From a virus (Duplodnaviria > Caudoviricetes): a stretch of DNA of 64,000 bases. Location: IMG/VR virus record IMGVR_UViG_3300031998_000004; one strand, 5' to 3'. A program made the position numbers and the translations under genes. The stretch's first letter is position 1. Each line of letters starts with the position of its first letter. Shown piece after piece: positions 25,715 to 63,854 of the stretch. The notes below the pieces were generated by a model. It did no database searches. It saw only the letters and a program-made list of their open reading frames with translations, and had not been told where the DNA came from.

Positions 25715-26152
25715 ATGAGTATATTTGATAATGACATAATAGAAAGACCCCTCCACGTAAGAGACGGATTTGACATTCGTATAGAGGAGTTTAATCGTCA
25801 TTGTTTTTATACATGGGTGTGGGAAAAGAAGGGAATTCATTGTTCTGGCGGTCATCCTGTTGGTGTTACATTACAGACCCTAACGGATGCCGTAACAGAC
25901 ACTTTGGGTGACCTCTCTGTGGATAACTTTGAAAAATGGATCACTGAAGCTCAGATTGGAGGACCCAAAATTGGAGCCGCAAAACACGCCATAAAATACT
26001 TCAAGAAACTCATTAAGAGAGAATATTGGAGGAGTCTGGGAGCCTTTGTAGAAAACGGAATCTTTGAATTTTACGTACGCGATGATGCGTTTGATGCCTG
26101 GGCTCTCCGGAGCGCTCTCCCTATTATGAGAATAATATTTTACAGAAAGTAA
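25715..26152 (+). CDS. MSIFD-motif family protein
   Basis: Starts MSIFDNDII. Confidence 0.7.
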   Translation: MSIFDNDIIERPLHVRDGFDIRIEEFNRHCFYTWVWEKKGIHCSGGHPVGVTLQTLTDAVTDTLGDLSVDNFEKWITEAQIGGPKIGAAKHAIKYFKKLIKREYWRSLGAFVENGIFEFYVRDDAFDAWALRSALPIMRIIFYRK

Positions 26153-26583
26153 TGGGAATATTTGATGTAAAAGAAAATATCAAACGAGAGTTTACTGTTG
26201 GAGACGTGTATGATGTGGATGTGGTAGATCTCGGAATGTCAGGAACCCTCGATGATAACGCTCGTCTGGTTTTCAAAGGATATAGTCTTGATGAAGTGCT
26301 AGGCGAGATGAAACAAACCAAACTCAAGACATTTGAAAGGTTCTTTAAGAAACCCACTTGGATATGGATAAGTGATTTTAAGTTCATTACCCTAACAGGT
26401 TGGAGACTAAAACGGTGGCTAGGGAAGTGGGTGAAAAAGAGATATATCACTGATCCGGATAATCTTCGTACCGACGTTCTCGGTGCTATTAAAGGAGTAT
26501 ATGTGTATAACGGTGAGATTATAGAATGGGCCACCGAGGCTTGTTTTTGGTTTAGGTTTTGTAAAAAAGAAGCCGATTTCTAA
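26152..26583 (+). CDS. MSIFD-motif family protein (MGIFD)
   Basis: Starts MGIFDVKENI; TAATG overlap. Confidence 0.65.
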   Translation: MGIFDVKENIKREFTVGDVYDVDVVDLGMSGTLDDNARLVFKGYSLDEVLGEMKQTKLKTFERFFKKPTWIWISDFKFITLTGWRLKRWLGKWVKKRYITDPDNLRTDVLGAIKGVYVYNGEIIEWATEACFWFRFCKKEADF

Positions 26584-27447
26584 TTACGAATCATCTATCC
26601 TATAAAATTTCTTATACTTCTCCTTTACCATAACAGAAGTTAGTTCTTTTATAAGTTTCCTGGCGTACTCGTCTACTTCTGGTCTTTTGTTGTTATATAT
26701 ATAGAAATAAGAAAGATTGCTATATCGACGGCAGTTTGCGTTTGGACCACCACGGAAATATTTTTGTCTAATGTATTCCCCTATTGTTTTTGTTGGATAG
26801 TGATTTATCCAAGCATTGGTATATATGGATTGATCATGAGTATCTAAACAAATAGCTTGAAAACTATTATTACACGGAACTCCACCAGCACTCACCGCAG
26901 ATAAATTTTTATTTTCATAATATCCGTGCCCAGTTACTTCTCCCCCAGTATAATCAATACTCCCCCTAATAAATGATTTTGCATAGTTCTCTTCCCTAGA
27001 TATGTGTATATCCTTAAATCTAGATACTACAGAATAATTTCCATTAATTACATCCAAATCGGTGTTTGTTGTATATATCTTCCAACACAATCTAATAACA
27101 TCGACTTTTTCGAATAGAGAGTCGTTCAAAAATTCTTTTATATTGTTATGATATTTCGGTTCTAACACAACGAACTCATCAATATCAATAAACAATAACC
27201 AATCAAAACCCTTCTTATATTTTAAGAAAGCTTCAGTATATGCTCGGGGTTGGACACTTTCAATGTTCAAATAGTCTAATATTATAACTTTATCGTTTTT
27301 TATTATATCACTCACTTTTTCTCCGGAATCGTCATCGTTGTTGTCACATATGATAATTGTATCAAATCCCAGTCCGAGATGATAATCAATCCACTCATTG
27401 ATATATAAGTTCTCTTGTCTGGCTATAGCTATTATTCCTACTTTCAT
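26584..27447 (-). CDS. GT-A fold glycosyltransferase (GT2/GT92-like)
   Basis: EN.YI.EW..YH..LGFD..I.DN, WLLFIDIDEF (DxD), INHY; start at MKVGIIAI. Confidence 0.85.
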   Translation of the reverse strand: MKVGIIAIARQENLYINEWIDYHLGLGFDTIIICDNNDDDSGEKVSDIIKNDKVIILDYLNIESVQPRAYTEAFLKYKKGFDWLLFIDIDEFVVLEPKYHNNIKEFLNDSLFEKVDVIRLCWKIYTTNTDLDVINGNYSVVSRFKDIHISREENYAKSFIRGSIDYTGGEVTGHGYYENKNLSAVSAGGVPCNNSFQAICLDTHDQSIYTNAWINHYPTKTIGEYIRQKYFRGGPNANCRRYSNLSYFYIYNNKRPEVDEYARKLIKELTSVMVKEKYKKFYRIDDS

Positions 27448-27509
27448 ACATAAAATAATAAAGGCCTTTCTTTCGAAAGACCTTAAAAAATAGAAATCAT
27501 ATTGACTAA

Positions 27510-28574
27510 TTAAGCGTTTTGAACTGTCCACCCAGCAGGAATACCGTCTACTCCTTCTGTCCAATCAGTCATAGAACTTGCTTTAACAAATGTACCGGTT
27601 GATGAAACTCCATCCACCCAGCTGGATGTGCAATACTGCGCAGAAATATCAGTTGCGAGACATTTTATATAATTAAGACTTGTGCATCCGGCAAACATAC
27701 TATGACACATCTCATATGGTAGTGTTGCTAATGAAATGACAGGAGCTGTTGTTAAATTAGTGCATCCATAAAACATTTGATTATATAATCCTTCTTTCGT
27801 AGATGCGGGAAGTATTAAATTAGCTGCAGAAATTAGATAAGTATCTTCATAAAACATACAATAAAAATCCCATCCGAACCGTACGGTGGGCTCTTTGCCT
27901 ACGAAATTGTCTCCCCATTCCAATGATAATATATTTCCATAAATTTCATAATCTGCAGTACTTCCGTCTAAAATAGATGTAGATGTACTCGACCCCATTG
28001 CCCCACTATATGTTGATCTAAATTGAATGGTGTCGTTTTCATTTACGGCAATAGTGACATTTGATTCAGGGTTAGATGGGGTCGTCCATTCCTGGTTATT
28101 GAGTTTATAATCAAAACTTGCAGAATCGTCATAATATCGTGATCCACCAAACACTATATTACCATTACCTAAAGCCTTCACCGTAAAGTACATGAGTGAA
28201 TAGTCGGGCTCTAATGTAACAGTCTCTGTATGATCCGCGTTTAGTGTATACGTTCCGGATTGAGTCGTATAACCAGTCTTACTAACTGACCAAGTTATTT
28301 CTGTTCCTGCTGCTGCGGTAAGAGATGTTCTTTCTGATCCATTAATCACTACAGTTGCATCGTTTGGAGTAGCTGTAATAGTGAAGGTAAAATCAGTAAC
28401 TAAACCAATCTCTTCGGCTATTACTTCCGTGGGAACTGATCTGGTTATCAGACCCAAGTCTTTTAAGGTATCTATATCACCAGCACTAGTAATGTATGCT
28501 AGTATATTTTCAGCAGGAACTACGTGAGTTACATACTTAAAGATTTTTAATTCGTTGATGTTGTCTGTATTCAT
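27510..28574 (-). CDS. Ig/PEGA-like plus BspA-type leucine-rich-repeat protein, probably virion-surface
   Basis: TITATPNDATVVING domain; MFYGCTNLTTAP and MFAGCTSLNYI repeats. Confidence 0.7.
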   Translation of the reverse strand: MNTDNINELKIFKYVTHVVPAENILAYITSAGDIDTLKDLGLITRSVPTEVIAEEIGLVTDFTFTITATPNDATVVINGSERTSLTAAAGTEITWSVSKTGYTTQSGTYTLNADHTETVTLEPDYSLMYFTVKALGNGNIVFGGSRYYDDSASFDYKLNNQEWTTPSNPESNVTIAVNENDTIQFRSTYSGAMGSSTSTSILDGSTADYEIYGNILSLEWGDNFVGKEPTVRFGWDFYCMFYEDTYLISAANLILPASTKEGLYNQMFYGCTNLTTAPVISLATLPYEMCHSMFAGCTSLNYIKCLATDISAQYCTSSWVDGVSSTGTFVKASSMTDWTEGVDGIPAGWTVQNA

Positions 28575-29956: not shown

Positions 29957-30562
29957 CTATATATCTTTTATTGACAAATCTGTCAGAAGCGTCCATATAC
30001 CATTTATGTATTTGTTAACATCAGAACGAGCAACTATACTAATTTCTATTTTATCAGTATCTAGTCCTTTCCAATTTTTATTTCCCACTTTTATGTCTTT
30101 ATGTCTCAAAGTTTCCGGGTCTAAACTATTGTCGATATATGATATATACACTTCTATTTTAGACCTTACCGGAGTATTTCCCCACTTGGTTCCTTCAGGC
30201 CATATAATTCCCGCTTCTTCCAATATATCGTTTAATGCTGTTGTATCTAACTCAGAGTCATTCGCGAGTTTCTGATGGTCTTTAAGTGTACTCGGTATTA
30301 CAATAGTGTTTTTGAGAATAATCGCAATAAACTTTTGAAGGTCCGGTGGGAATGTGGTTTTGGAAAAATTCTTATTAAATGTCGGAGACCCATCTAATAC
30401 CCACTTCTTCTTCACAGCACCTTGTGCAAAGTAATGAGTCCACCCTCCATCACGCGAATCTTTGAACTTCTTTATATGTCCACCAAATAACGCATATAAA
30501 GAAGTTATATCATCTTCTGCTAGATTCTTATCAAACAAACTTTCTCTTAAACTTTTCATCAA
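29957..30562 (-). CDS. MKxLxE-SLFD family protein
   Basis: Starts MMKSLRESLFDKNL. Confidence 0.75.
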   Translation of the reverse strand: MMKSLRESLFDKNLAEDDITSLYALFGGHIKKFKDSRDGGWTHYFAQGAVKKKWVLDGSPTFNKNFSKTTFPPDLQKFIAIILKNTIVIPSTLKDHQKLANDSELDTTALNDILEEAGIIWPEGTKWGNTPVRSKIEVYISYIDNSLDPETLRHKDIKVGNKNWKGLDTDKIEISIVARSDVNKYINGIWTLLTDLSIKDI

Positions 30563-31122
30563 CCGACTCTTAATTTCTCAAACTCCCATCTCATAAACCA
30601 ATCAGGAAGTCTTTTAAGTGATTTGCACCCATTAAACATACCATTACCCGTATCGACTACCCTTCTTACATTCCATTTAGAAAGATCGGAGTTGAATGTT
30701 TTGCAATTATAAAACATAAAATTCATAAATTCAACCCTTCTTACGTTCCATTTAGAAAGATCGGCGTTGAATGCTTCACAATTATAAAACATGCAGTTTG
30801 TATCTTGTACTTTACTTACATTCCATTTAGAAAGATCGGAGTTGAATGTTTTGCAATTATAAAACATATACCCCATATCTTCAACCTTACTTACATCCCA
30901 TTTAGATATATCTATATTTTTTATTATATTTGAAAGATGCGCAAACAAATAAGACATATCTGTTATCTTACTAATATCTATAATATTGAGATTAGCATCC
31001 GGTCCTTGAATTTTTAATTGCTCTTCTATACAATTAATTAATTCACCCTTTGTTTCAGGATGATATAATATATCATTCTTAACTATATCTTTATCAAAAA
31101 GGCTTTCTACTAGTGTCTTCAT
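30559..31122 (-). CDS. MKxLxE-SLFD family protein with BspA/DUF285 repeats
   Basis: Starts MKTLVESLFDKDIV; repeats of DLSKWNVSKV..M..MFYNC..FN. Confidence 0.8.
   Translation of the reverse strand: MKTLVESLFDKDIVKNDILYHPETKGELINCIEEQLKIQGPDANLNIIDISKITDMSYLFAHLSNIIKNIDISKWDVSKVEDMGYMFYNCKTFNSDLSKWNVSKVQDTNCMFYNCEAFNADLSKWNVRRVEFMNFMFYNCKTFNSDLSKWNVRRVVDTGNGMFNGCKSLKRLPDWFMRWEFEKLRVG
30665..30868. repeat. 75-bp-period coding repeat (DUF285 units)
   Basis: 30665-30718 identical to 30815-30868, with a diverged copy in between. Confidence 0.8.
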
Positions 31123-31676
31123 TAATCATCTTTTAATTTTTCAAACTCCCATCTTAAAAGATCGGTGTTTCCATAAGGACCATAAGTCAGGCAAACTGCA
31201 ATAGTCCACTTTGAAGTAATTATATCAAAATGAAATTTCGTATTTCCGTTTATGCCTCTCTTCTCACCCTTCCATTCCGGTAGTATGTATTGGTCTAGTT
31301 TCTGGCACATCTCATCACGGAATCTACTATTAAACTCTCCAAACCTACACTCCTCAAGAAACGGGATACACATAAGAAGTCTTGCGAAGAGTTCGGTTTT
31401 CTTAGTTGACTGTACTGTTCTGATATTAGTATTACTCGCGTTAGCATAAGCATACATTCCCAAGTCTATCTTCTGACCACCAAACTCCTTTACATCTTTC
31501 ACCACTTTCTTCCAATCAATCACCCCAAGGGCATTATCTTGTTTTGGTATAGGGAATCCTGGAGCTAATCTCAATACCCACTGACCATCAAAGAACGCTA
31601 TGTCTTTGATTTGATGTACCGGTACTTTCTTTTGTACTAGGTCTGTATCAAATAGGCTTTCAACTAATGACTTCAT
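31122..31676 (-). CDS. MKxLxE-SLFD family protein
   Basis: Starts MKSLVESLFDTDLV. Confidence 0.75.
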   Translation of the reverse strand: MKSLVESLFDTDLVQKKVPVHQIKDIAFFDGQWVLRLAPGFPIPKQDNALGVIDWKKVVKDVKEFGGQKIDLGMYAYANASNTNIRTVQSTKKTELFARLLMCIPFLEECRFGEFNSRFRDEMCQKLDQYILPEWKGEKRGINGNTKFHFDIITSKWTIAVCLTYGPYGNTDLLRWEFEKLKDD

Positions 31677-32227
31677 ATCTCTTCAAATGCAATTGTACAT
31701 TGGATATCTTTTCTCCAAAAACTAAACGTAATAATATTTTCTTTTAATCCATTTGGTTCCCCAAAATAATAATTCCCTCCGCGACCAAGCATGTTATCTC
31801 CTTTCAAATTTTTGAAATATTGAGAAAGTATATTATATGCTTCTTTTATAAAACCACCAATATAAGGAAATCGATTACTTTCTTCTTTAGTACATATATA
31901 TGGTATGTTATTTATTGCCGCAATAAAATAACCTATATCATCACAAAATTTTTTTCCTGCGACTCGAGCATCGAATCGTTTTGTCATCTCATGATCAAAA
32001 TGAATATCACTATTTATTTTAATAGGAGTCGGAAAATTCTTTTTAAGTAATGATGTTTTAATAGTATTTGTCAACCATTCATAATCCCTATCAGTGTGTC
32101 GTTGATCATCATTTTTATAATCACCATCGATAATGTATACTCCTTTCACTCGATAATAATCACCAAATGTAGGAATATCTTTTTCCACAAGATCTTTATC
32201 AAATAAGCTTTCTACTAATGACTTCAT
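31673..32227 (-). CDS. MKxLxE-SLFD family protein
   Basis: Start re-assigned to MKSLVESLFDKDLV. Confidence 0.75.
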   Translation of the reverse strand: MKSLVESLFDKDLVEKDIPTFGDYYRVKGVYIIDGDYKNDDQRHTDRDYEWLTNTIKTSLLKKNFPTPIKINSDIHFDHEMTKRFDARVAGKKFCDDIGYFIAAINNIPYICTKEESNRFPYIGGFIKEAYNILSQYFKNLKGDNMLGRGGNYYFGEPNGLKENIITFSFWRKDIQCTIAFEEI

Positions 32228-35882: not shown

Positions 35883-36263
35883 TTAATGATTTTTAAGATA
35901 TGTTTTAAGATTTTCCGTTATTTTATCGATACCATAATAGATATCCATCTTACAAAGAGCATCTCCGGTAAAATCGTATGCTTCTGTTAATGTATTATTG
36001 ATCTCCCCAATCATTTTATTTGCAGAAGTTTGACCATTCATATTAAATTGTGTTACCCAAGCACAGAATGTTGGAGGAAAGTAAATCAAAGAAGCAGATC
36101 CTCTTTCCACTGTGATTATCTTCTCCCAGAATTCTGAGTCTTCCCCCCATTTAGACGGGGCACCCCACTGTTTAGATTTCTTGAACCCCATCTTCCTGAG
36201 GAATCGTTCCGAGATCTTCTGATTACCTCCCCGAACACTATTATATGTATCAAATACGCCCAT
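35883..36263 (-). CDS. Hypothetical protein with MGVFD start (possible MSIFD-family member)
   Basis: Starts MGVFDTYNSV. Confidence 0.6.
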   Translation of the reverse strand: MGVFDTYNSVRGGNQKISERFLRKMGFKKSKQWGAPSKWGEDSEFWEKIITVERGSASLIYFPPTFCAWVTQFNMNGQTSANKMIGEINNTLTEAYDFTGDALCKMDIYYGIDKITENLKTYLKNH

Positions 36264-50640: not shown

Positions 50641-51188
50641 AGACTCTCAGAGAAAGCCTGTTTGATGATAATCTTGTATCAAAAGATATAAGATTGGGAG
50701 ATCTGTATGAGTTGGAGTTTGTTCATTTACAAAGTCCTTATTGTTTTAATAAACTATATACAAAAAGAATTATCTCACAGAATTCGAAATTGGCTGACGA
50801 AAAGGACCTTAAGAAATATTGGTATTATTATGGTTCGGATAAGAATTATAAAACCCCACCACCAGAGATGGAAGCCGTGAGTAATGTAATTATTGGAGAA
50901 ATAGAAAAATTTCCAATGTATAAAGCACAAGGCGAACCACGAGGAAATGGGTTTTTGTATGTGTTTATTCAAGGACCAGATGACCCGTTTTCTAATGCAC
51001 TGAGACAATATTTACACGAATTTATAGACCCATATATTGTTGCGATGCAACCACATCGGATTTATGTGGATACTAATTATAAGTATCATAAACAAGAAGG
51101 ATACATTCAAGTTAAAATTGGTAAAAACACAAATCGAGGAAGATCAAGTATTCCAGATAGTATAGAATTTGTATTTAGAAAAAAATGA
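50637..51188 (+). CDS. MKxLxE-SLFD family protein
   Basis: MKTLRESLFDDNLV. Confidence 0.75.
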   Translation: MKTLRESLFDDNLVSKDIRLGDLYELEFVHLQSPYCFNKLYTKRIISQNSKLADEKDLKKYWYYYGSDKNYKTPPPEMEAVSNVIIGEIEKFPMYKAQGEPRGNGFLYVFIQGPDDPFSNALRQYLHEFIDPYIVAMQPHRIYVDTNYKYHKQEGYIQVKIGKNTNRGRSSIPDSIEFVFRKK

Positions 51189-51844
51189 AACACTTAAAAA
51201 CATATATAGAATGTGATGCTGGAATCACCGCGACTCCCACAAATACCATGGGTATGGGTAATCCAGGAGAGATCGCTCCAGACACTCTTTCCGAACCCAT
51301 CGGTGGAACAGCGAAGTCTGAAGTGGAGAAGAAAAAGAAAAAGAAGAAAATGAAGTCTCTGGCGGAATCTCTTTTCGATATTGACAATAATGTTACAAAC
51401 GACTTAACTTTTGGTGGAACATTTAAGTTGGTTAATATAGAAACAAAAGACTCATTATCTAGGCCAGGACATGGACAAACTAGAGGCAGAATGGTGAAAA
51501 TGAAAAGTAAACCTGAGGATATGTACAAGGTGAGTTTAATATCAAAACACTCTGGCTTGAAGGTCAATAAAGATATGGAGTCAATAGCAGCTGCTCTAGC
51601 TGTTATAGTTGAGAAAATCCCATTTACTGCTGAGTCTATAAAAATGTCTTTATATGATTTTTCTCAAACAACTTTAAAACCACTCAAACAATACTATTCA
51701 TCTAATGTAGGAGCTGGATATTTGAGTATGGGTGCTGATGTATATGCACACACACCAGACTGGAAGAGAGATGTCGATGTGTTAGATGCCCATGAAGTGG
51801 ATATAGATTTCTTGAACATAAAATTACACTACGTTAAAAAATGA
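51185..51844 (+). CDS. Fusion: small leader peptide, poly-Lys linker and MKxLxE-SLFD family protein
   Basis: MKHLKTYIEC...KKKKKKK-MKSLAESLFD (internal ATG at 51350). Confidence 0.7.
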   Translation: MKHLKTYIECDAGITATPTNTMGMGNPGEIAPDTLSEPIGGTAKSEVEKKKKKKKMKSLAESLFDIDNNVTNDLTFGGTFKLVNIETKDSLSRPGHGQTRGRMVKMKSKPEDMYKVSLISKHSGLKVNKDMESIAAALAVIVEKIPFTAESIKMSLYDFSQTTLKPLKQYYSSNVGAGYLSMGADVYAHTPDWKRDVDVLDAHEVDIDFLNIKLHYVKK

Positions 51845-52368
51845 AGACATTAGTGGAGAGTTTATTTGACGACAATATTAAAAAAGACATCCATCTCGGA
51901 GACTTACTCGAACTCGAAAAATGGGATACACCAGAGGCATGGGATGACGATATAATATCTAAAATGTTGAGAGCAAACTACGATATGAAGAAAGCAAAAT
52001 CCCTCATAAACAAACCCAAGTGGAAGAAGTTTTTAGAACCATATCGTGATGAATATAAAAAACCCCCAACTAATTATATTAATGCTAAATACAATTGGGA
52101 AACGATTTGTTGGTATTTGACTTGGGTGGCGCTGAGTTGTGGTTCTGGAAAAGAAGCAGAGACAAAACTTGTAGAATATTTGAAAGATATATCTTACGAA
52201 GATGAATTGGCTGATGAATTCACAATCAATGAGGTGGAAGTAATATCTCTTAATCGATCATTTATGAACGGGCTACCAAGAATGATAGTATTCAAGTTCC
52301 ATACGAGATACGACAATATAAAAGAAGGAGTTAAAATACTTTATATGACATTAAAAAAGAAGGACTAA
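51841..52368 (+). CDS. MKxLxE-SLFD family protein
   Basis: MKTLVESLFDDNI. Confidence 0.75.
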   Translation: MKTLVESLFDDNIKKDIHLGDLLELEKWDTPEAWDDDIISKMLRANYDMKKAKSLINKPKWKKFLEPYRDEYKKPPTNYINAKYNWETICWYLTWVALSCGSGKEAETKLVEYLKDISYEDELADEFTINEVEVISLNRSFMNGLPRMIVFKFHTRYDNIKEGVKILYMTLKKKD

Positions 52369-52613: not shown

Positions 52614-53024
52614 CTAACACCCATGCGCATATTTACCGAAACGTTTGTATAAAATAGTCGAAATCTTCTTTTTAACGTCTCGGTTCACCTGATAGTAACG
52701 TTTCTGGTTGTAAACCAAGCAAGGAAGTTCCAGACCCCTGATAGTCTCTTCAAAGACCGGGTAAAGATGATATGTATCCATTCCGGGTACATCTCCATAC
52801 ATTGAACGAAAGATACTATGTTCTTCTTTGAAGGTCCCCGTAGGAATCTTGGTGGTCTTCTTTGCTCCCCAAAATAATTTTTTCTGTCTGGGAGTTAACG
52901 CAAATGAACCCTCACGCGGAATCAGGGTACTACCACTGTTGGATATCTTATAGTTCTTAAGGATCATCTTATCGCTCTCTGCCTGGAGCTGTTTGGGATC
53001 AAGGTGGTTGTCAAATACACTCAT
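52614..53024 (-). CDS. MSIFD-motif family protein
   Basis: MSVFDNHL. Confidence 0.7.
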   Translation of the reverse strand: MSVFDNHLDPKQLQAESDKMILKNYKISNSGSTLIPREGSFALTPRQKKLFWGAKKTTKIPTGTFKEEHSIFRSMYGDVPGMDTYHLYPVFEETIRGLELPCLVYNQKRYYQVNRDVKKKISTILYKRFGKYAHGC

Positions 53025-53027
53025 ATT

Positions 53028-53453
53028 CTAAAATTTATAAATTTTCTTATGTTGAAAGGCTCTTCTTCTTATTACTTGAGAGATCCAATATTCATTAAAT
53101 GCATTATATAAAGGCCAAAGTACCGCTTTATCAAAATAAATTTGATTCTTAAAAATCAGTTTTCTTATGTCCGGGTGTCCAAACCCATGTGCGAATTTAG
53201 AAAAATCCCATTCCGAAGGAAGATCATAATTATCAAGCATCCTTGCTATATCAGCAACACCTTCATTCATATAAAAATCCCAAACAACACTTATTGGAAC
53301 AAACATCCTACCAGAGCGGCTCCTAAGCGCATCAGTAAATGTTCCAGACTTCTCTACTAAAACAATTGCTCCATAATCGGTTGAAAAAAACCAATTGTAA
53401 TGCTCAAGAATGAAGTCGTCTTGATTGGTGATATGATCACTAAATATACTCAT
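53028..53453 (-). CDS. MSIFD-motif family protein
   Basis: Start at MSIFSDHI. Confidence 0.7.
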   Translation of the reverse strand: MSIFSDHITNQDDFILEHYNWFFSTDYGAIVLVEKSGTFTDALRSRSGRMFVPISVVWDFYMNEGVADIARMLDNYDLPSEWDFSKFAHGFGHPDIRKLIFKNQIYFDKAVLWPLYNAFNEYWISQVIRRRAFQHKKIYKF

Positions 53454-53461
53454 ATATTTAA

Positions 53462-53899
53462 TTACCAAATAACTTCAGAATCTTTAAGTATATATAAAAA
53501 CAATTGCTCCGCAAGATGACTCATCATTCCATGAGGAATAATATAGAAAGGAGTATCTTTGTATGTAATAAATTCACCAATATCACTAAATAACTTCATC
53601 GGATATATAACAACGCCCACATTATGTTCTTCTAGTTCCCGTTCGACTATAAATTTAAATTGCTCATCAGTAATCTTCCCAATATATCCCGGACACATAG
53701 TATATATAATGTTCATCAATTCATCAAAACAAAGTAATCTCTGACCATTATATTCTTTTTCATATTCGCGACGTGGAAGAAGTTCAACAATAGTGCAGTG
53801 TCCTTTTCCGTCCGGCCCCACAGCTGGTATAAACCTTTGATTTATTAAACGGTATTCGGCTTCTTTGTCATACCCGTCTATTGAAGAAAATATACTCAT
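53462..53899 (-). CDS. MSIFD-motif family protein
   Basis: MSIFSSI. Confidence 0.7.
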   Translation of the reverse strand: MSIFSSIDGYDKEAEYRLINQRFIPAVGPDGKGHCTIVELLPRREYEKEYNGQRLLCFDELMNIIYTMCPGYIGKITDEQFKFIVERELEEHNVGVVIYPMKLFSDIGEFITYKDTPFYIIPHGMMSHLAEQLFLYILKDSEVIW

Positions 53900-54366
53900 T
53901 TCTTATGCGTGCGTTTGAAATACTTCGAGTTACACGTTTCTTTGGATATATAATTAAACATCGTCTCAATGATTCTATTTTTAAGACTAGATGGATTGGC
54001 ATCATACAAATCGGTTTTAATATAGGTGTCTCCTTTATATTGCAAAACGCCACACTCCGTAATCATTCTATTAAATCGAACCATAAGATTTCCCTCGTCC
54101 AGTTTACTTAATTCAATCTTGCCTCTGTCTTTTTTCGAGACAATATCTCGTATACTATCGAGTGTTCTACCTACATAGTAAAAGAAAACATACATCGGGT
54201 TATAATATACACTACCATGAGGATAACTAAACTTACCATCAAGATTTTTAGGAAAGAGTCCTTTCCGAATCCTTTTCCCCTTCACATAATCCCATTCGAG
54301 ATTGTAAAGCTGCTCGATAGTATCATCGTTGGTTGCCTGGATGTTGTCGTTGCCAAATATACTCAT
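53896..54366 (-). CDS. MSIFD-motif family protein
   Basis: MSIFGNDNI. Confidence 0.7.
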   Translation of the reverse strand: MSIFGNDNIQATNDDTIEQLYNLEWDYVKGKRIRKGLFPKNLDGKFSYPHGSVYYNPMYVFFYYVGRTLDSIRDIVSKKDRGKIELSKLDEGNLMVRFNRMITECGVLQYKGDTYIKTDLYDANPSSLKNRIIETMFNYISKETCNSKYFKRTHKK

Positions 54367-54369
54367 GAC

Positions 54370-54828
54370 CTACTTATAATCGTAATTAAGTTTATACTTA
54401 TATATCGGATATATACTACTTATATACTTTGCAAAGGACCTAATCAACCAATAATGATTTTGTTTTTCGTAATATTTGTGTTTTTTGTAAGTGATGTATT
54501 TTCCGTTTTCAATATCCTGAAAAAAGATCTTTTCAAGATCACGGATATGCCTCAACTCAACGTGTTTTCTAACCTTAATGTTTGCTGCTCCTTTTTTGTG
54601 AGATGTTCGAAGATCTATTTCAATCATCGTAACAGCCCCCTGATATATATCCCAAAAGTCAGTATTTCTCTTATCTACATACTCTACACCATCATATCTT
54701 ATAGACCACACATCATTATATGCAGGGTCTTCACTCTTGAAAAAACTGTATCTTTTCATCTGGTCCGCGTGTTCTTCAAGAAAGGCGTCGTTAATTCCTT
54801 CTTCGGTTGTTCTATCAAATACACTCAT
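54370..54828 (-). CDS. MSIFD-motif family protein
   Basis: MSVFDRT. Confidence 0.7.
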   Translation of the reverse strand: MSVFDRTTEEGINDAFLEEHADQMKRYSFFKSEDPAYNDVWSIRYDGVEYVDKRNTDFWDIYQGAVTMIEIDLRTSHKKGAANIKVRKHVELRHIRDLEKIFFQDIENGKYITYKKHKYYEKQNHYWLIRSFAKYISSIYPIYKYKLNYDYK

Positions 54829-54831
54829 ATC

Positions 54832-55290
54832 TTATTCAAGTGGTCCGTCCCAATGGAACTTGTGTTTCTCACAATACTTTAAAATCAAGTTAATTTCATA
54901 CATGGTATGAAAACTACGAACATCCCGCCAACAAAAATAGAGGAGCCCTTTGTACATATGCGCTCTTATTTCTCCATTATCATATGCCTTTTGAATAGCT
55001 CGGAGGTAGTGTCTTTTATCTATACGAATATTAGAAAATTCCTCTACATGATACTGTTTTGCCATCTTATAGGTTCTCCAAGGCCTCCAATCATTATACG
55101 CAGCTATAGCAGTGCAGTAATCTCCGCGATCCCATATATCATGGGGTGCTTTGTTCATTCTTGGATATAACCATCCATCGCTCCTACCCCATGCACCATT
55201 CCACAAGGGAGCGTCCGAGTCCTCAGATCTTTCGTACCACTGGCTAAGGATTTCGTCAGATTCTACTATATGATTGGTAAATATACTCAT
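54832..55290 (-). CDS. MSIFD-motif family protein
   Basis: MSIFTNHI. Confidence 0.7.
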   Translation of the reverse strand: MSIFTNHIVESDEILSQWYERSEDSDAPLWNGAWGRSDGWLYPRMNKAPHDIWDRGDYCTAIAAYNDWRPWRTYKMAKQYHVEEFSNIRIDKRHYLRAIQKAYDNGEIRAHMYKGLLYFCWRDVRSFHTMYEINLILKYCEKHKFHWDGPLE

Positions 55291-55685
55291 AGTCCGTGAT
55301 GTCTTAAAATTATGTCTCTATCCATATCGTTTTCAAAACGACATAAATCTCCAACATTGTAATAAGTCTCTCCATTCAGAATCAGGATTCTAACATCACC
55401 GCTGGCTACCTTTCTGGAGAGTTTGTTGATATAAGTCTGTCTTCTAGGTTGATAGCTGATTCGGAACCCAGCAAAGTAGTTTCGTTTTCCGGCGAGATAA
55501 GTCTCCCAAGCTTCTTCAAGTATAATATAAGAAGTGTGTTTGTATGTGGAGCCACGATCTCCCTTATCGATAAGGTAAGTCCGGTCTTCTCTCTTACCAC
55601 GATCAACATTGGTATAATATCCCAACTCGAACTTTTCGAGAATTATATCGTCTGCTTTGGCTATATGATCTTCAAATACACTCAT
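55287..55685 (-). CDS. MSIFD-motif family protein
   Basis: MSVFEDHI. Confidence 0.7.
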   Translation of the reverse strand: MSVFEDHIAKADDIILEKFELGYYTNVDRGKREDRTYLIDKGDRGSTYKHTSYIILEEAWETYLAGKRNYFAGFRISYQPRRQTYINKLSRKVASGDVRILILNGETYYNVGDLCRFENDMDRDIILRHHGL

Positions 55686-55810: not shown

Positions 55811-56902
55811 TTAGAAAGGAAGATCCTCACCAGGAGCAGCACCGAAAGCGGTCTCTATCTGTGCTTCGGGAGAAGCGGGAGCTTCTGCTACAGCAGCACC
55901 GGCTTCAATGAGAGGGTTGCCCTGCTTGAAATCCTCGTAAGAGATGTTCTCAGGATTCTTACCAGCAAGAACAATCTCAATCCACTGATTGACTTTCTTC
56001 TCGGTATTCTCATCCCATTCCTTCCAACCACACTCCTGACGGAGATCAAACGCATTCTCCTTTACATAATTGTAAGCAATCTCGTAAAGAGGACGGAGCT
56101 GAGGACGAAGTGCTTCAAGCTGGTTAGCAGCTGCCTTACGCTTGGCTTCGGTCTTTGCACCAGTGCTATCCTTGATAGCAGTTACATAGTTGTCAATCAC
56201 CTCGAGCTGCTCTTCGGTGAAGAGAGGAGTACCATCAGTCTTGATGATAGGTGCGTAATCACCAAAATCACAGAGATTGTAGTTAATCTCACGCTGCTTA
56301 CGCTGAGGATTTGCAGGGTCATCCGGACCAGGAACAACCTCCATGTTGAGTTCGAGACCAATAACATAATCCATTACAGGATAAGGGGTCTTCTTGGAGT
56401 CCTTACTCGGAGCCATGCGTGCCTTGAGCTTATCATGAATTGCCTGGGGAAGCTTCATTGCCATGAACTTACCAACGAGATCCGGCTTATTCTCATCTTC
56501 GAGAATCTGTACGATCACATAGTCGCTTTCATTTTTCTGGAAAAGACTCTTTGCACGTTCCTTCTCGGCATCGTCTCCTGAAAACCATAGCTTCTTCCAC
56601 GCCCTAAAAATCGGACAGTTTTTAAACTCCGGGTCGCTCGGTCCATTACCAAGGCGACTTCTTACGAGCATGCTTCCGTCTGCACTCTTAAGAAAATAAG
56701 TTGCCTGATGAACGATTGAGTCCTTGGGTGCGGTAGGATTATACACCACTCGCGCCTTACTGAGATAGTGACCAGACTCCGACTTGGTGTCCTTGGGATT
56801 AGTCTTGTAGATGTTAGCGTCATAGGAACGCTGCTCGGGTTCGTTGAATGCGGATACATCCTGAGGATTGAAACCCATTACCTCATCAATAAAATCTGCC
56901 AT
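55811..56902 (-). CDS. Single-stranded DNA-binding protein (gp32-like) with acidic DLPF tail
   Basis: CPI...W..L, VQILEDENKPDLVGK, NY..C.F; Ala/Glu linker and C-terminal EDLPF. Confidence 0.75.
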   Translation of the reverse strand: MADFIDEVMGFNPQDVSAFNEPEQRSYDANIYKTNPKDTKSESGHYLSKARVVYNPTAPKDSIVHQATYFLKSADGSMLVRSRLGNGPSDPEFKNCPIFRAWKKLWFSGDDAEKERAKSLFQKNESDYVIVQILEDENKPDLVGKFMAMKLPQAIHDKLKARMAPSKDSKKTPYPVMDYVIGLELNMEVVPGPDDPANPQRKQREINYNLCDFGDYAPIIKTDGTPLFTEEQLEVIDNYVTAIKDSTGAKTEAKRKAAANQLEALRPQLRPLYEIAYNYVKENAFDLRQECGWKEWDENTEKKVNQWIEIVLAGKNPENISYEDFKQGNPLIEAGAAVAEAPASPEAQIETAFGAAPGEDLPF

Positions 56903-58817: not shown

Positions 58818-59213
58818 TCACCACTTCATAGGATCAAAATTATTAATTTTCTGTTCCTCTCTAACAATCAATTTGCTTGGGATATTGACATTCAATATTT
58901 CAACATATCGAGAAATCCATAAAATGTTCTCCCTCCCATTAACATGATCAACAATCGCTACTGTAATATTAACATTCCAGTGATCATTATAATCGTGTAC
59001 AATCATCTTGGGATAACGATAATCACATTCCTCTAAATTACTATATGTATGATTAGCATAGAATAAATTATTGAATACGTTTGCAATCCTCTCCGGATCA
59101 AACATACAATAATTAGCAGTCTCTGAGAAATGTCCCAAAATCAACCCTCTCATTTGTGACACTATCTTCTCAAGAGTTATTTCATTGGTTATATTATTAT
59201 CAAATATACTCAT
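58818..59213 (-). CDS. MSIFD-motif family protein
   Basis: MSIFDNNI. Confidence 0.7.
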   Translation of the reverse strand: MSIFDNNITNEITLEKIVSQMRGLILGHFSETANYCMFDPERIANVFNNLFYANHTYSNLEECDYRYPKMIVHDYNDHWNVNITVAIVDHVNGRENILWISRYVEILNVNIPSKLIVREEQKINNFDPMKW

Positions 59214-59230: not shown

Positions 59231-59680
59231 TTATAACAATAAAACATCTCCCATCTCTTCAATCCGTTCAATCCGCTCATAAAGCAACTCTTGTTCTATA
59301 AGATCTGGATTAAACTGGGATATATACGGTATTAATAAATTCATCTAATATGAACTCATAGTTACCAGTACCATCCCAAGGACAATAGGGATCATCAAAT
59401 AGTTCAGCAATTAAACCAATACACTTTACCCTCATACGTCCAAAATTATATTTTTTCAATTGTCATCCTATTCATCAAGGCTCAAGAAAAATGTCTTCGT
59501 TGTATCTAGAATCATGGGCGAATACATCATAGACGCATATACAGGAGCTCGCTTACCGCCTTTTGTAGACCAATGACCAATATCAGTGGTTGCCCATATC
59601 AGGTCTCTTAATTCCTCCATGGTCTTTACTCGTCTGATATCAGATTCATCTTGAATCAAGTCTGGATTAAATATACTCAT
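59231..59680 (-). pseudogene. Disrupted MSIFNPDLI gene plus a decayed paralog fragment
   Basis: 59468-59680 stops at 70 aa; another frame continues QLKKYNFGRMRVK...YIPV; a further fragment reads ISQFNPDLIEQE. Confidence 0.5.
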
Positions 59681-59970
59681 CTAAATTCTACTGGTTCTTC
59701 TATATTAAATTTTTGATGATTAGGCCATGTTGGCTGGGTAACCTCGAGCTTCAAATGACCGAATCCCTCCCTATAACAAACTATATGCAAATGCGAATAT
59801 GCCTGTTGAACTCGTCGAACTATTTTCTTTACAGCCAATCCCGGATTATAACCAATATCATACATAATCCCTTCCGTGAGATTAAAGCCAAACTCCTCTT
59901 CACATAACATTTCAAAGTACGTTTGTGGGTCTGGTAGGGTCTGGATTATGTCTTTATCAAATATGCTCAT
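59677..59970 (-). CDS. MSIFD-motif family protein
   Basis: MSIFDKDII. Confidence 0.7.
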   Translation of the reverse strand: MSIFDKDIIQTLPDPQTYFEMLCEEEFGFNLTEGIMYDIGYNPGLAVKKIVRRVQQAYSHLHIVCYREGFGHLKLEVTQPTWPNHQKFNIEEPVEFR

Positions 59971-60422
59971 TGTATATACTTTTCTCGAAGCTCTTTATAC
60001 TTTTCTCGAAACTCTTGAACTTGTTTTGCAACAAGATCTAAAGTCTCTTCTGGTATTTGAAGAACTATGTGTTGTAATTGTAAGTTCCCTCGTAATCTGT
60101 AACTTACTATCAAGTATTCTTGTATAAGTGGTTTCGAATTATCCTGTTCTTTACATATGTCGTATTCAATCAGGTTGGCAAAAGGTCCTTTCCAATCGGT
60201 TGGTGGAGTGGGCTCTGTACATAAATTCGACATATATTGATCTAGGACATACGACAGAAACCCTGAAGGACTAACCGCAGGCGGTGAAGTTAGTTGAGGT
60301 TCATTCATATACACATCCACAAGTCTATTAAATTCTTGTTGGATTTGTATCCCTACGTTATCAACCACATACGGGCTATATCCCAAGTCCTTTGAAACTA
60401 TATCTTTATCGAATAGGCTCAT
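59967..60422 (-). CDS. MSIFD-motif family protein
   Basis: MSLFDKDIV. Confidence 0.7.
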   Translation of the reverse strand: MSLFDKDIVSKDLGYSPYVVDNVGIQIQQEFNRLVDVYMNEPQLTSPPAVSPSGFLSYVLDQYMSNLCTEPTPPTDWKGPFANLIEYDICKEQDNSKPLIQEYLIVSYRLRGNLQLQHIVLQIPEETLDLVAKQVQEFREKYKELREKYIQ

Positions 60423-60781
60423 ATCGTTTGTAGTGGAGTAAACTTAAAATTATAAAGTTCTGTATGTATTGGCCCTTCAAGATTCTGTTTATAATACCGG
60501 ATATCAACAACAATATCTAATCCCGCATGTCCATATTTGTGTGGAAGGAGTGTAATGTGGAAGTCATTAACGTCTAAATCATTTCTTTCAAAAACCTGCT
60601 CATAATTACTTCTAACCAAATTCCGCAATATTTCTTCCATAAAAACAATTCCCCAGAACTTACCTTTGACCACATAATCATTAATCCATATTGCCATCTG
60701 TGCATGGATATGTTTCTTTATTTCCTCAAACATCTCTTCTACGGAAGTTTTGTTGGATATGTTTTCGCTAAATATACTCAT
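60419..60781 (-). CDS. MSIFD-motif family protein
   Basis: Start at MSIFSENI. Confidence 0.7.
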   Translation of the reverse strand: MSIFSENISNKTSVEEMFEEIKKHIHAQMAIWINDYVVKGKFWGIVFMEEILRNLVRSNYEQVFERNDLDVNDFHITLLPHKYGHAGLDIVVDIRYYKQNLEGPIHTELYNFKFTPLQTI

Positions 60782-60783
60782 AT

Positions 60784-61278
60784 TCAATACAAATAGAAAT
60801 AGGAATAATTCCAATCTGTGACTTTTTCTTTTAGACAATTCATATCCTTATCGAAACGAAGAATTACTTCGCCTGTGGGTTCACATGAGCTCTCAATTTC
60901 ATCTTTCATTCGTTGACGAGCTTCTGATATTTCAGCCCAACCAAGAGTATTCATTTTGTGTGAGTAACGCGCCCTGATATGTTCTTCCTGACTATCAGAA
61001 ACTTTAATTACAATGTAAAGTTCTCCGTCTATATATCGGTATTTTCCAAAAGAACCAATATAAGCGTCAGCGTCAGGCACATACAAATTATATTTTGGTA
61101 AGAGTTCATAACACCAATCATTAATTTTGTTGTAATTAAGATTTGCTCTGTTATTATCTCTGTTTCTGATAAAATATGATTTGTATGAGTCAATCTTTGC
61201 TCTCAAAGCAAGCATAAACTGAAACTTTCTTTTTACGTCTAACCGACGTTCAATTATGTTTTCACTAAATAACCCCAT
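60784..61278 (-). CDS. MSIFD-motif family protein
   Basis: MGLFSENI. Confidence 0.7.
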   Translation of the reverse strand: MGLFSENIIERRLDVKRKFQFMLALRAKIDSYKSYFIRNRDNNRANLNYNKINDWCYELLPKYNLYVPDADAYIGSFGKYRYIDGELYIVIKVSDSQEEHIRARYSHKMNTLGWAEISEARQRMKDEIESSCEPTGEVILRFDKDMNCLKEKVTDWNYSYFYLY

Positions 61279-61281
61279 ATC

Positions 61282-61728
61282 TTAAATCGTCCACCATTCG
61301 TGTTTAAGTTTTTCTATATTGTATTCCAACACCTTTCCATACTGATTAAGAACAATGTGGATGTTTCCATAGTTCTCCCAATAATTTTCATCACCGAAGC
61401 CGCTATAGTCATCCGTAGGGATAGTAATAAAGTAATACCCGTCTTTCCACTCAACCCAGGGATATTCTGTTTTATAGTCAAACCTCCTATCTTTGGGATC
61501 ATACATCTGTCCTTCGACACATAATATATTATTATATTTTGTGCTATTCTTAATACTTACAATATACATAAATATAAGATTACACACATTTGCTGGTCCA
61601 TGAGTCTTTCTTGTTGCAAGAATATCTTTGCGATGTGCCTGTAACTTATCAATCACACTAAAGCAAAACTGATCGATGAGAGGAACGTGTACTTCTTTCT
61701 CGATTATGTCACTATCAAATAGACTCAT
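61282..61728 (-). CDS. MSIFD-motif family protein
   Basis: MSLFDSDII. Confidence 0.7.
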   Translation of the reverse strand: MSLFDSDIIEKEVHVPLIDQFCFSVIDKLQAHRKDILATRKTHGPANVCNLIFMYIVSIKNSTKYNNILCVEGQMYDPKDRRFDYKTEYPWVEWKDGYYFITIPTDDYSGFGDENYWENYGNIHIVLNQYGKVLEYNIEKLKHEWWTI

Positions 61729-61776
61729 GTATTAAATCAACTTTATTGATCGATTCAAACTCTGTTTGAATTTATA

Positions 61777-62130
61777 TTAACAAAACTTCACAAAATATAT
61801 AGATTTTATTCTCCCGTTACTTCCCATTTGTATCTTCCACTTTACCCATACACCATACTTGCTATAGATGCGTTGTACTGTATTGTCAAGCGATTCTTGC
61901 CATGATTTGGGAAGATGCTTCATATTATGAAACATTTTTTTAATATCCTTTTTACTGTATGGTGGTGTATCAGAACTATCTACATCGATGAAATGACCAC
62001 TCGTACGATCCCACGCGGTTTGAAATCCGCGTCTCTTGAGGTATTCGCGAGCAAGAATGTCATAACAAACATTATTCCAATTGGTGTCTTTTGGAATAGA
62101 AGGGGTGATGTTATTAGTGAATATTCCCAT
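61777..62130 (-). CDS. MSIFD-motif family protein
   Basis: MGIFTNNI. Confidence 0.7.
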   Translation of the reverse strand: MGIFTNNITPSIPKDTNWNNVCYDILAREYLKRRGFQTAWDRTSGHFIDVDSSDTPPYSKKDIKKMFHNMKHLPKSWQESLDNTVQRIYSKYGVWVKWKIQMGSNGRIKSIYFVKFC

Positions 62131-62386
62131 TTGAGTATTTATCTATTAATTTATCAAGATTAGCAAATTCGATTTTTTTCCAATATCCGTGTCGTCTAAA
62201 TGGATCGACCCAATTAACATATACATCACTTTTTCTTAATTCTCCTATAATGTAATTCATTTTAGTGACACACATATTCTTATAAAGATCTCCATTCAGT
62301 TCATTGTATGTCTCCCCCCATCGTTTGAGATCAAGGAGTTTTTCAAGAACTGTTTCATTAGTTACGTTATCACCAAATATGCTCAT
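62114..62386 (-). CDS. MSIFD-motif family protein
   Basis: MSIFGDNVTN. Confidence 0.7.
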   Translation of the reverse strand: MSIFGDNVTNETVLEKLLDLKRWGETYNELNGDLYKNMCVTKMNYIIGELRKSDVYVNWVDPFRRHGYWKKIEFANLDKLIDKYSNGNIH

Positions 62387-62724
62387 AGACTAGGCACAGG
62401 AAGTTTAAGACAAAGAAACACATTATCTGGACTAGGAAGAAAGTCTTCTTGAGATTCTGAATAGATTATAGATAAGGAAATCCTCGAAAAACAATTCTCA
62501 TAAACTACATAATTCACAATTACCTCAGGATGATACATATTGAATTTATTAAAACGATATATCACCCCGCTCAGAGCGCGTTGGCAAGCTTTCTCGGTTT
62601 CTATTATATTCCCACCATTCTGTATAAAGAGAAGTTCAAAGTTATCAGTATACCACCTCTTGAGAAGATCATGAAACTTCTCCAACGGAGAAGGTGTAGT
62701 TATATTATCGTCAAATACACTCAT
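62383..62724 (-). CDS. MSIFD-motif family protein
   Basis: MSVFDDNI; PLEKF.D shared with the next gene. Confidence 0.7.
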   Translation of the reverse strand: MSVFDDNITTPSPLEKFHDLLKRWYTDNFELLFIQNGGNIIETEKACQRALSGVIYRFNKFNMYHPEVIVNYVVYENCFSRISLSIIYSESQEDFLPSPDNVFLCLKLPVPSL

Positions 62725-63125
62725 AAGACCGGTTTTTGATGAATATCAAAATTCATATGAAGGAATATTTTTGCTTTGTCGTGTACATATATAGTAGGGT
62801 CATCGCCGTAGTAAAGAGTGACTTCTATATAGTATTTAGATTCTCCCGGATGTCGATCATAACGAGTGTGAAATGTTAAATGAACCCATGGCTGATAAAT
62901 TTTATGCGCCTTGAACATGTCTTTGATCTTCTGCGATTCCCCTAACTCAGCGATACTATTTATATGTCCGTTAACCATAGCGTTAAATTCAGTTGCAGTC
63001 CATGATAGATTATAACTTGATTTTTCGTAGACGCAATAAAAATTTTCTTCGAGATAGGATTTTATAAAATCATAAAATTTCTCTAGCGGAGTTTTGTCTG
63101 TTATGTGTTCACTAAATACACTCAT
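62721..63125 (-). CDS. MSIFD-motif family protein
   Basis: MSVFSEHI. Confidence 0.7.
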   Translation of the reverse strand: MSVFSEHITDKTPLEKFYDFIKSYLEENFYCVYEKSSYNLSWTATEFNAMVNGHINSIAELGESQKIKDMFKAHKIYQPWVHLTFHTRYDRHPGESKYYIEVTLYYGDDPTIYVHDKAKIFLHMNFDIHQKPVL

Positions 63126-63490
63126 TTTATTATTCCATTTATACCAACATTAAACTCACAAAGATACTCTTGGTGTACATGCATGTCACCAGATGGTTTA
63201 GCATAATAAAAATATACAGTATATAGGGTTTTATGATTATGGCTGGTTTGAAATACTTCAAAACGATATATTTTTTCATCGTTATTTTTTGGATCACTGC
63301 TATAATCGTAGCTATAATCATAAAACAACAATCTTTTACATACTAATTCCTGCCTGATATAGTAATACATCAATTGTTCATCAGCATTGTAGCGTATCAT
63401 CTCTCTTGGAATGACTCTCCCTACAATCTCTTTACATTGATCGTAGAGTTCGTCAAGTGGGTGTTTGATATTATCACAAAACAGACTCAT
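63122..63490 (-). CDS. MSIFD-motif family protein
   Basis: MSLFCDNI; paralog of the next gene (F.VGINGII). Confidence 0.7.
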   Translation of the reverse strand: MSLFCDNIKHPLDELYDQCKEIVGRVIPREMIRYNADEQLMYYYIRQELVCKRLLFYDYSYDYSSDPKNNDEKIYRFEVFQTSHNHKTLYTVYFYYAKPSGDMHVHQEYLCEFNVGINGIIK

Positions 63491-63854
63491 CGATTATTCC
63501 ATTTATACCAACAGTAAATTGAGCAAGAGGTTTTCCTTGTTGCCCCCACAGATCATTAATAATTTCATCCAAAAAATAGAATCTTACTACATATGTGGGT
63601 ATTCCCCGAATATACGCTCCAGTCTTTACATCTACCTCACTGATTTTATTAATATCTGATGAATTTCTTTCGGGCCACCACCTATTTGCTAGCAACCCTA
63701 TACAGTTTAATTCGAACATTATATCTCGTTGCATTGTCTCACATCTACCATTATAATGCATCATATTACCGGGAATAATTGTTCGACATATATCTTTACA
63801 CGCGTCGTAGAGGTGGTCAATAGGAAGCTGAATATCTTTATCAAATATGCTCAT
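63474..63854 (-). CDS. MSIFD-motif family protein
   Basis: Start at MSIFDKDI. Confidence 0.7.
   Translation of the reverse strand: MSIFDKDIQLPIDHLYDACKDICRTIIPGNMMHYNGRCETMQRDIMFELNCIGLLANRWWPERNSSDINKISEVDVKTGAYIRGIPTYVVRFYFLDEIINDLWGQQGKPLAQFTVGINGIIDESVL

Follow-up and report, generated by a model that had tools for sequence, protein, structure and literature searches.

Introduction

DNA sliding clamps are known hubs of protein interaction, and single phage proteins that bind them, such as MuC and Mor from phage Mu and gp33 and gp55 from T4, have been recognized. The bacterial beta-clamp-binding motif has the consensus Q-aliphatic-x-[LM]-[FL]; it is found at the extreme C-terminus in Pol II and Pol IV, while Hda carries its motif at the N-terminus (PMC11139829). 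In phage Mu, MuC and Mor possess functional clamp motifs at residues 2-6, of which that of Mor retains only the D-L-F of the consensus (PMC12867686). The T4 polymerase, gp55 and gp33 share a common clamp-binding tail (PMC2988020), and the tails of the T4 clamp clients were confirmed here in the T4 genome. Short terminal peptides are also used by T4 for other ends: Alt is cleaved after residue 6, at I-T-E, by gp21 (PMC5694885), and IPIII is targeted by means of a hydrophobic residue at position 4 and an aromatic residue at position 7 (PMC9026906). Here we describe a large set of small proteins that begin with one peptide, [SG]-[ILV]-F, referred to below as the tag. They are encoded by a tailed phage from a metagenome (IMG/VR record IMGVR_UViG_3300031998_000004), of which a stretch of 64,000 nucleotides, the window, was analyzed together with other parts of the same genome and with related contigs.

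A shared N-terminal peptide on diverse small proteins

A six-frame regular-expression scan of the window yielded 39 tagged open reading frames (ORFs) of at least 40 codons within positions 25715-63854, and no tagged start in positions 1-25000. This is exactly the number given by a first-pass annotation of the same DNA. Twenty-six of the proteins, the S class, start with M-[SG]-[ILV]-F, while the other 13, the L class, carry M-[KE]-x-L-x-E-S-[LI]-F, in one case internally (51350). Position by position, the S class reads M (26), S (22) or G (4), I (15), V (6) or L (5), F (26), D (12), S (6) or another residue, any residue, D (8), N (8) or H (5), and I (15) or L (3), so that the statement in the annotation that only Ser and Gly follow the initial Met holds. 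The L class reads M, K, S/T, L (13), x, E (13), S (13), L (12), F (13), D (12), x, D/N, L/I and V/I. The near-identical pairs of L-class and S-class starts to which the annotation drew attention are all present (44168 and 62386, 31122 and 60422, 44848 and 61728).

Chance does not account for these starts. From residue composition, 0.13 would be expected among 109 genes, and the comparison with shuffled sequence that had been proposed as a check gave none in shuffled DNA. Within proteins, M-[SG]-[ILV]-F was encountered once in 20,186 residues, and the frequency of internal [SG]-[ILV]-F-x matches the background (11 observed, 9.2 expected); among the small tagged proteins, the tag is confined to N-termini. 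The first-pass annotation had further argued, from the use of AGT, AGC, TCA and TCT for the Ser of the tag, that selection acts on the peptide. While all four codons do occur, 32 of the 35 Ser codons are AGT or AGC and three are TCA or TCT, and the S, G and I/V/L codons are mutually one-base neighbours. The similarity of the tags is therefore mostly a matter of common descent, and the codons indicate selection on the peptide only weakly. Better evidence for such selection comes from 48 pairs of homologues from the window and related contigs, in which the tags are 61% identical and the bodies 36%.

Reading covered about 150 kb of the 240-kb genome, making gene counts for the whole genome a lower bound. 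In this portion there are approximately 35 S-class genes, 20 L-class genes and two genes with a long leader; the tagged genes thus number more than 50, about a quarter of the ORFs read. Furthermore, a profile of the L class retrieved 181 clusters at 50% identity from 1.84 billion proteins, nearly all with the same first 14 residues. With at least 181 distinct clusters bearing the L-class N-terminus, the phenomenon is therefore widespread in gut and rumen viromes.

The bodies behind the tag are largely dissimilar. Once their tags had been trimmed, 84 proteins from the window and six related contigs fell into approximately 50 sequence groups, of which 21 comprise more than one protein, mostly a window protein and its counterpart from a related contig, and 29 proteins are singletons. 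In an all-against-all BLAST comparison, similarity was mostly confined to the first 20-30 residues. Searches of all 39 proteins with Pfam and PHROGs gave a single match, to DUF285 in one protein, and Foldseek searches of the PDB with the models of one family from each class returned nothing at E <0.001. In these AlphaFold2 models, both built from shallow alignments, the predicted local distance difference test score (pLDDT) falls below 50 for residues 1-17 of the L-class family (predicted template-modelling score, pTM, 0.62) and for residues 1-9 of the S-class family (pLDDT 81, pTM 0.77). Because a low-confidence tag precedes a folded body in both models, and the bodies differ between the families, the tag is predicted to be a flexible appendage that lies outside any common fold. 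Burial of the motif in a common fold, which had been named beforehand as an observation that would overturn the idea of one peptide on diverse cargo, was thus absent from both models, and that idea stands.

The arrangement of the tag is variable in a manner that preserves its core. The same body family is found with and without the leader (P0241 and G007), and since leader-bearing and leaderless members coexist, the leader appears to be optional, with S-aliphatic-F kept directly after Glu or Met. In orthologues from several contigs the tag is doubled, the order being leader, tag, S-K-T-Q-x-M-E and tag again, and the internal tag stands after a conserved segment of 55 residues, a fused layout that recurs in six other database clusters. 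A 547-residue protein from the tail gene cluster combines a variant of the leader with G-M-F-D-F. Part of the L class shares a second conserved element, F-G-D-[LI]-[YF], approximately 20 residues in, and therefore constitutes a true family.

Leader-like starts were also seen on other proteins. A nucleoside diphosphate kinase (NDK) encoded approximately 21 kb beyond the window start (L022 15319-15741) possesses about 17 extra N-terminal residues that begin like the L-class leader, without the Phe, and its G002 orthologue has another short leader. An M-K leader with a conserved T-P-x-N-T-M-G-M-G-N-P element is present on small proteins or pre-segments at window 51185-51349, L044 12454-12630 and L049 13679-13870, and a 54-residue ORF from T4 (record 18952-19116) has a similar layout, with a leader and G-G-N-P.

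The same peptide at the C-termini of replication proteins

The last seven residues of the C-terminal piece of the phage's split family-B DNA polymerase (5709-6620) are E-M-S-L-F-D-F, which is the tag peptide. In 119 homologues, D-G-S-I-Q-[ML]-x-[LM]-F forms or adjoins the C-terminus of the polymerase, with D-F added in some, and as putative motifs the tails of this clade fit the beta-clamp-binding consensus exactly. Similarly, the RNase H/flap nuclease encoded just beyond the window end has the C-terminus E-S-I-F-E-E-I, and approximately 120 nuclease homologues retain a C-terminal I-[EQK]-x-[IL]-F-[DE]-x-[ILF]. A third tail of this kind, D-[IV]-L-F-[DE]-A-x4-5, belongs to a sigma-like factor from the phage's own genome and from four related contigs, two of them near-identical; this factor is probably also among the phage's own clamp clients. 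The motif of the tags is thus found on bona fide clamp clients, and in the tags it occupies a terminus predicted to be disordered.

The resemblance is also apparent when scored. With a matrix derived from the nuclease tails of other phages, the 39 tags lie at the 99.95th percentile of all 5-mers from the window proteome, and with a polymerase-tail matrix at the 99.7th percentile, while untagged N-termini score far lower. Moreover, each tag form has its match among the tails, M-S-L-F-D corresponding to the polymerase and E-S-[IL]-F-[DE] to the nuclease. Since the classes map onto two enzyme tails in this way, proteolysis is not needed to explain the two forms; the classes noticed in the first-pass annotation are real, but the two processing routes that it inferred for them are not required. 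Its suggestion of one shared receptor, which it did not name, is borne out insofar as a common peptide exists, but the partner need not be a new one: the presence of this peptide at the ends of both the polymerase and the flap nuclease points to the sliding clamp.

A different C-terminal element was observed on the gp32-like single-strand-binding protein (55811-56902, minus strand), which ends with D-L-P-F, like the bacterial single-strand-binding protein's C-terminal tail. All gp32-like homologues seen in the clade (also in L043-L053) end with [DG]-[LA]-P-F, and some flap-nuclease homologues have a similar x-P-F end added after their own tail.

A candidate sliding-clamp docking motif

Together, these observations raise the possibility that the tag is an N-terminal docking motif for a sliding clamp, probably the beta clamp of the host, a reading that we regard as evenly poised between right and wrong. 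According to this proposal, a short linear motif on a flexible N-terminus would dock each protein onto the clamp on DNA, its core being [E or M]-[SG]-[ILV]-F-[DE or polar], the next residues being acidic or amide and then aliphatic. The phage's clamp clients (polymerase, RNase H/flap nuclease and probably the sigma-like factor) would carry the peptide C-terminally, and more than 50 small orphan proteins would carry it N-terminally, after Met or after a short leader ending with Glu. The tagged proteins would then be recruited to DNA-loaded clamps at replicating DNA, or would rival host clients there, and if the L-class leader is in addition a capsid-targeting propeptide cleaved by a protease, some of them may be injected. 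Clamp binding by the tag, the identity of the clamp and the roles of the cargo domains are what we infer from sequence.

In order to find the clamp, models from Pfam and PHROGs (gp45, DnaN, PCNA and DnaX-like loaders) were combined with a local phmmer search using T4 gp45, and the T4 clamp was recovered as a positive control. No gp45-, DnaN- or PCNA-type clamp and no loader-like ATPase was detected in the relatives G008, G007, G009, G001 and G002, although the prefilter may miss very divergent clamps; of these, G008 is 100% complete (197.5 kb, with terminal repeats) and G007 97% complete. Nor was such a clamp or loader detected in the phage's own contig, where the search covered approximately record positions 57-208 kb of the 240 kb. 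For a phage-encoded trimeric clamp with its loader in particular, there were no hits to PF02916, PF09116 or phrog_223 in the relatives and the parts of the phage's own genome that were read. Because the polymerase tail of the clade is the bacterial beta motif, and because no clamp or loader was found in complete or near-complete relatives, the clamp would most likely be host DnaN, and we infer that the lineage uses host replication hubs. A complex prediction with two copies of the E. coli beta clamp and the S-class protein 61282-61728 scored 0.01, from a three-row alignment and with a stand-in clamp from another host; the score is below the mark and carries no weight in either direction.

Several points weigh against this reading. 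None of the 39 tags fits the strict motif Q-aliphatic-x-[LM]-[FL], and only a looser x-[SG]-aliphatic-F accommodates them, a departure from the consensus also seen in Mu Mor: Gln, which matters for affinity in E. coli clamp motifs, is absent, Met or Glu occupies motif position 2, and 21 of the 26 S-class tags have Ile or Val at position 4, in place of the Leu or Met of clamp motifs and of the polymerase tails. This last objection is tempered by the nuclease tails, in which Ile and Leu alternate at that position. In addition, the motif invariably begins at residue 2 itself or immediately behind Glu, a placement that a plain linear motif does not need, and a free N-terminus could therefore matter. 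The variable position of the tag does not covary cleanly with the polymerase tail among the window, G007, G008 and G009; in G009, for example, the polymerase tail is M-D-L-F but the tags are E-S-I-F. Covariation across lineages was accordingly dropped as evidence. Furthermore, more than 50 competitors for one hub are, to our knowledge, without precedent, and the approximately 85 kb of the phage's own genome outside the clamp search could hold a phage clamp gene.

Alternative explanations

One alternative is the two-route model of the first-pass annotation, directed at a receptor that is not the clamp. The leader may be a T4-type capsid-targeting sequence cut after L-x-E by a prohead protease, with Met being removed from the leaderless class, such that the free S-aliphatic-F-D peptide addresses a different partner, for instance in the scaffold core, the ejection machinery or the host. 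Although this explanation survives better than the other alternatives, we consider it unlikely. The L-class start does parallel that of T4 Alt, M-E-L-I-T-E-L-F-D-E-D, and the long leaders of relatives (M-K-x-[IL]-x-E-Y-I-N-E, before S-L-F-D) are similar to M-K-T-Y-Q-E-F-I-A-E, the targeting sequence on T4 internal proteins (PMC9026906). As in a propeptide of approximately 6-19 residues ending with [LI]-x-E, L4-x-E6 is present in 13 of 13 L-class proteins, with the 26 S-class proteins leaderless; the residue before Ser is always Glu in the leader forms and Met in the leaderless ones, and position 2 is restricted to Ser or Gly. The leader on the 547-residue tail-cluster protein also agrees with such a role. 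A gp21-type prohead protease, which the first-pass annotation had invoked, is indeed encoded in the genome by the evidence of profile hits (Peptidase_S77/phrog_207): its gene lies approximately 18 kb beyond the window start and specifies a 492-residue protein with weak hits to PF03420 and PF20034, and its homologue in G002 has a match to phrog_207 at 2e-44 and passes the PF03420 cut-off.

Conversely, the short leader has L4 but S7, with no counterpart to the aromatic residue by which T4 IPIII is targeted; its position 10 is Asp, a residue that prevents processing in T4 (PMC9026906). The ten-residue leader M-K-x-[IL]-x-x-Y-I-x-E, which precedes S-[IL]-F in relatives, has both [LI]4 and Y7. Packaging would leave the same peptide at the ends of the polymerase, the nuclease and the sigma-like factor unexplained, and with more than 50 species packaged, this phage would far exceed any known one. 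The location of the genes likewise divides the two classes. L-class genes are mostly found on the strand of the baseplate genes, while S-class genes mostly share theirs with the genes for the polymerase, gp32 and the nuclease, and their arrays lie directly downstream of the nuclease and gp32 genes on the same strand, an unexpected place for capsid cargo. Given the resemblance of the leader to Alt and to the capsid-targeting sequence, and the presence of a gp21-type protease gene, L-class proteins may nevertheless be cleaved and packaged.

A T4-late-like TATAAATA upstream of the L-class array 48031-52368 and of the head-fibre gene would also be in keeping with packaging. The second of these is an exact match at 28587-28594, 13 bases upstream of the head-fibre-dimeric-domain gene (27510-28574, minus strand), and there are 18 occurrences of TATAAATA where 10 are expected. 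An ATTATTT element stands near some starts. The TATAAATA and ATTATTT signals are too weak for expression timing to be read from them.

A signature M-K-x-[IL]-x-x-[YF]-[IL]-x-E, closely resembling the capsid-targeting sequence carried by T4 internal proteins, is far more widespread, occurring on many small ORFs that have no S-aliphatic-F tag (in G001, G002, G007, G008 and G009, at window 48031-48300 and at L014 5009-5443).

Docking and packaging could also be combined. More than 50 effectors addressed to the host beta clamp might then include some that act early and others that are packaged by way of a cleavable T4-like leader, injected, and their peptide unmasked by the prohead protease. We are doubtful of this fuller scheme; if it were true, DNA-loaded host clamps would provide, from the first minute of infection, a common landing pad for take-over, anti-defence and DNA-modifying functions.

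A further explanation requires no address at all. The N-terminus could be the slowest-evolving remnant of one tandemly amplified family, kept as a first structural element, for translation start in a host without Shine-Dalgarno sites, or as homology for cassette recombination. The tandem arrays of genes of similar length, the preference for AGT/AGC among variants that are all one-base neighbours, the AT-rich start (ATG AGT ATA TTT GAT) and the F-G-D-[LI]-[YF] element, which makes a large part of the L class one family, are all as this explanation would have it. However, the tag lies outside the predicted fold, is more conserved than the bodies, occurs on unrelated ones (DUF285, the 547-residue tail-cluster protein and, as a variant, NDK), and is also found doubled and internal; the leader can be lost while S-aliphatic-F stays. 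Other genes of the same genome do without this start, and the match to three C-terminal tails cannot be an effect of translation start. An unaddressed remnant is therefore improbable, more so than packaging.

Least probable of all, and in our view very unlikely, is the reading of the tag as a mark recognized by host proteases or chaperones, for instance as a degron for ClpXP or Lon or an N-end signal of the ClpS type, which would give the proteins a short, timed life: the tag is disordered, hydrophobic then acidic, and fixed at the extreme N-terminus, but essential replication enzymes would have no reason to end with the same peptide, and we know of no degron class with this sequence.

Genome context and neighbouring genes

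The positions of the tagged genes and of the replication genes discussed above are listed in Table 1. The last S-class array extends past the window end by six more genes, up to the RNase H/flap nuclease gene.

Table 1. Tagged genes and associated features of the window.
Feature	Position	Strand	Remark
Two S-class genes	25715-26152, 26152-26583	+	regular-expression scan
Four tandem L-class genes	29957..32227	-	starts 30559, 31122, 31676, 32227
L-class gene	30559-31122	-	DUF285/BspA-type repeat body
S-class gene	35883..36263	-	M-G-V-F-D; tagged homologue in G002
S-class gene	38598..38888	-	Ser codon TCA
Two S-class genes	39998..41480	-	starts 40813, 41480
Two L-class genes	44168-44848, 44848-45501	+	
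T4-late-promoter-like TATAAATA	47996-48003		upstream of L-class array 48031-52368
Five L-class genes	48300..51188	+	starts 48300, 48797, 49276, 50065, 50637
219-residue ORF	51185..51844	+	L-class tag internal at codon 56 (51350)
L-class gene	51841..52368	+	
Seven tandem S-class genes	52614..55685	-	downstream of gp32-like gene, same strand
S-class gene	58818..59213	-	
Twelve tandem S-class genes	59468..63854	-	
Split family-B DNA polymerase, C-terminal piece	5709..6620	-	last seven residues at 5712-5732
Split family-B DNA polymerase, N-terminal piece	7853..9826	-	
gp32-like single-strand-binding protein	55811..56902	-	between two S-class arrays

The window is part of a metagenomic contig of 240,263 bp that was matched in bovine gut and rumen runs, with 6% of the sampled words present in an RNA run, and the phage can be assigned as a very distant T4-like myovirus. 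The window encodes the split family-B polymerase, the gp32-like protein and a gp6-like baseplate wedge protein, and outside it are found a Gp23-family capsid protein, gp13, terminase, gp46/47-like proteins, ligase and the prohead protease. No DNA similarity to isolated phages was found, and the nearest polymerase from an isolate, that of Flavobacterium phage MaF61, is 27% identical. The genes lack Shine-Dalgarno sites, three small predicted lipoproteins (16151-16612, 17195-17578 and 36265-36480, minus strand) have signal peptides of Bacteroidota style ending with Cys, and one polymerase homologue was binned in a metagenome-assembled genome of Parabacteroides; the host is therefore likely to be a member of the Bacteroidales.

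The polymerase gene (5709-9826, minus strand) is split by a 376-residue ORF (6633-7763, phrog_22677). It is unsplit in G007, G008 and G009, G002 has another inserted ORF, which is homing-endonuclease-like, and some homologues carry the intein-related Pfam domain PF14890. Large DUF7487/HNH-type homing endonuclease genes are scattered in the genome, with several in G001, and one of them (56990-58768, minus strand) lies between the gp32 gene and an S-class array. G008, the complete relative, whose polymerase tail is Q-M-D-L-F, lacks large S and L arrays; at 147662-149264 it has two adjacent genes that start with M-K-D-L-F-E, like the N-terminus of Mu Mor.

Two further gene groups are of note. QueE-like, QueD-like and QueC genes (window 23978-25376, minus strand; L024 4797-5543) point to a probable 7-deazaguanine modification of the phage's DNA. 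Two genes upstream of the gene for the Gp23-family major capsid protein stands a reverse transcriptase gene (RVT_1, 391 residues, L039 15759-16934), which may represent a diversity-generating retroelement or a retron.

Comparison with known systems

A literature search with the tag motif strings returned nothing relevant. The view of the first-pass annotation that this is not a described system needs qualification, as N-terminal clamp motifs are known from Mu Mor and MuC and from Hda; it stands for the scale and the modular use. If the tag does dock proteins on a clamp, a quarter of the genes of a jumbo phage would carry one hub-docking peptide, a new scale and a new logic by which fast-evolving orphans are modularly addressed to replicating DNA. 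The tag would then be a one-step handle on the place of action of dozens of proteins without assigned function, and for Bacteroidota the set would supply a naturally occurring library of clamp-binding peptides. It would also suggest that this T4-like lineage relies on the host clamp for replication, in place of one of the gp45 type.

The T4 capsid-targeting sequence resembles the leader in being a short M-K start that ends with aliphatic-x-Glu and sits on highly diverse small proteins, and Alt, cut after six residues to leave L-F-D-E-D, is much like the L class. However, the aromatic residue of IPIII has no equivalent in the short leader, the leaderless majority cannot use this route, and the gene number is ten times that of T4.

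The gp45 clients of T4 (gp43, gp55, gp33, ligase and RNase H, with a tail of the S-L-D-F-L-F type) offer a second parallel, namely a hydrophobic-acidic peptide common to the polymerase, a sigma-like factor and Okazaki-fragment enzymes. Here, by contrast, neither gp45 nor a loader was detected in complete or near-complete relatives and the motif is of the bacterial type, while T4 possesses no large set of small N-terminally tagged proteins.

The bacterial beta-clamp motifs (Q-L-[SD]-L-F) likewise are pentapeptides in a disordered terminus that end with aliphatic-Phe, followed by acidic residues. The tags differ from them in lacking Gln, in often having Ile or Val before Phe, and in being fixed at residue 2 or after Glu; unlike the bacterial motifs, which occur on one or two regulators or enzymes, they are borne by more than 50 unrelated orphans of one genome. 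What would set this system apart from those described is the number of its genes, the modular way in which one peptide is joined to orphan bodies that are unrelated, and the probable dependence of a T4-like phage on its host's clamp.

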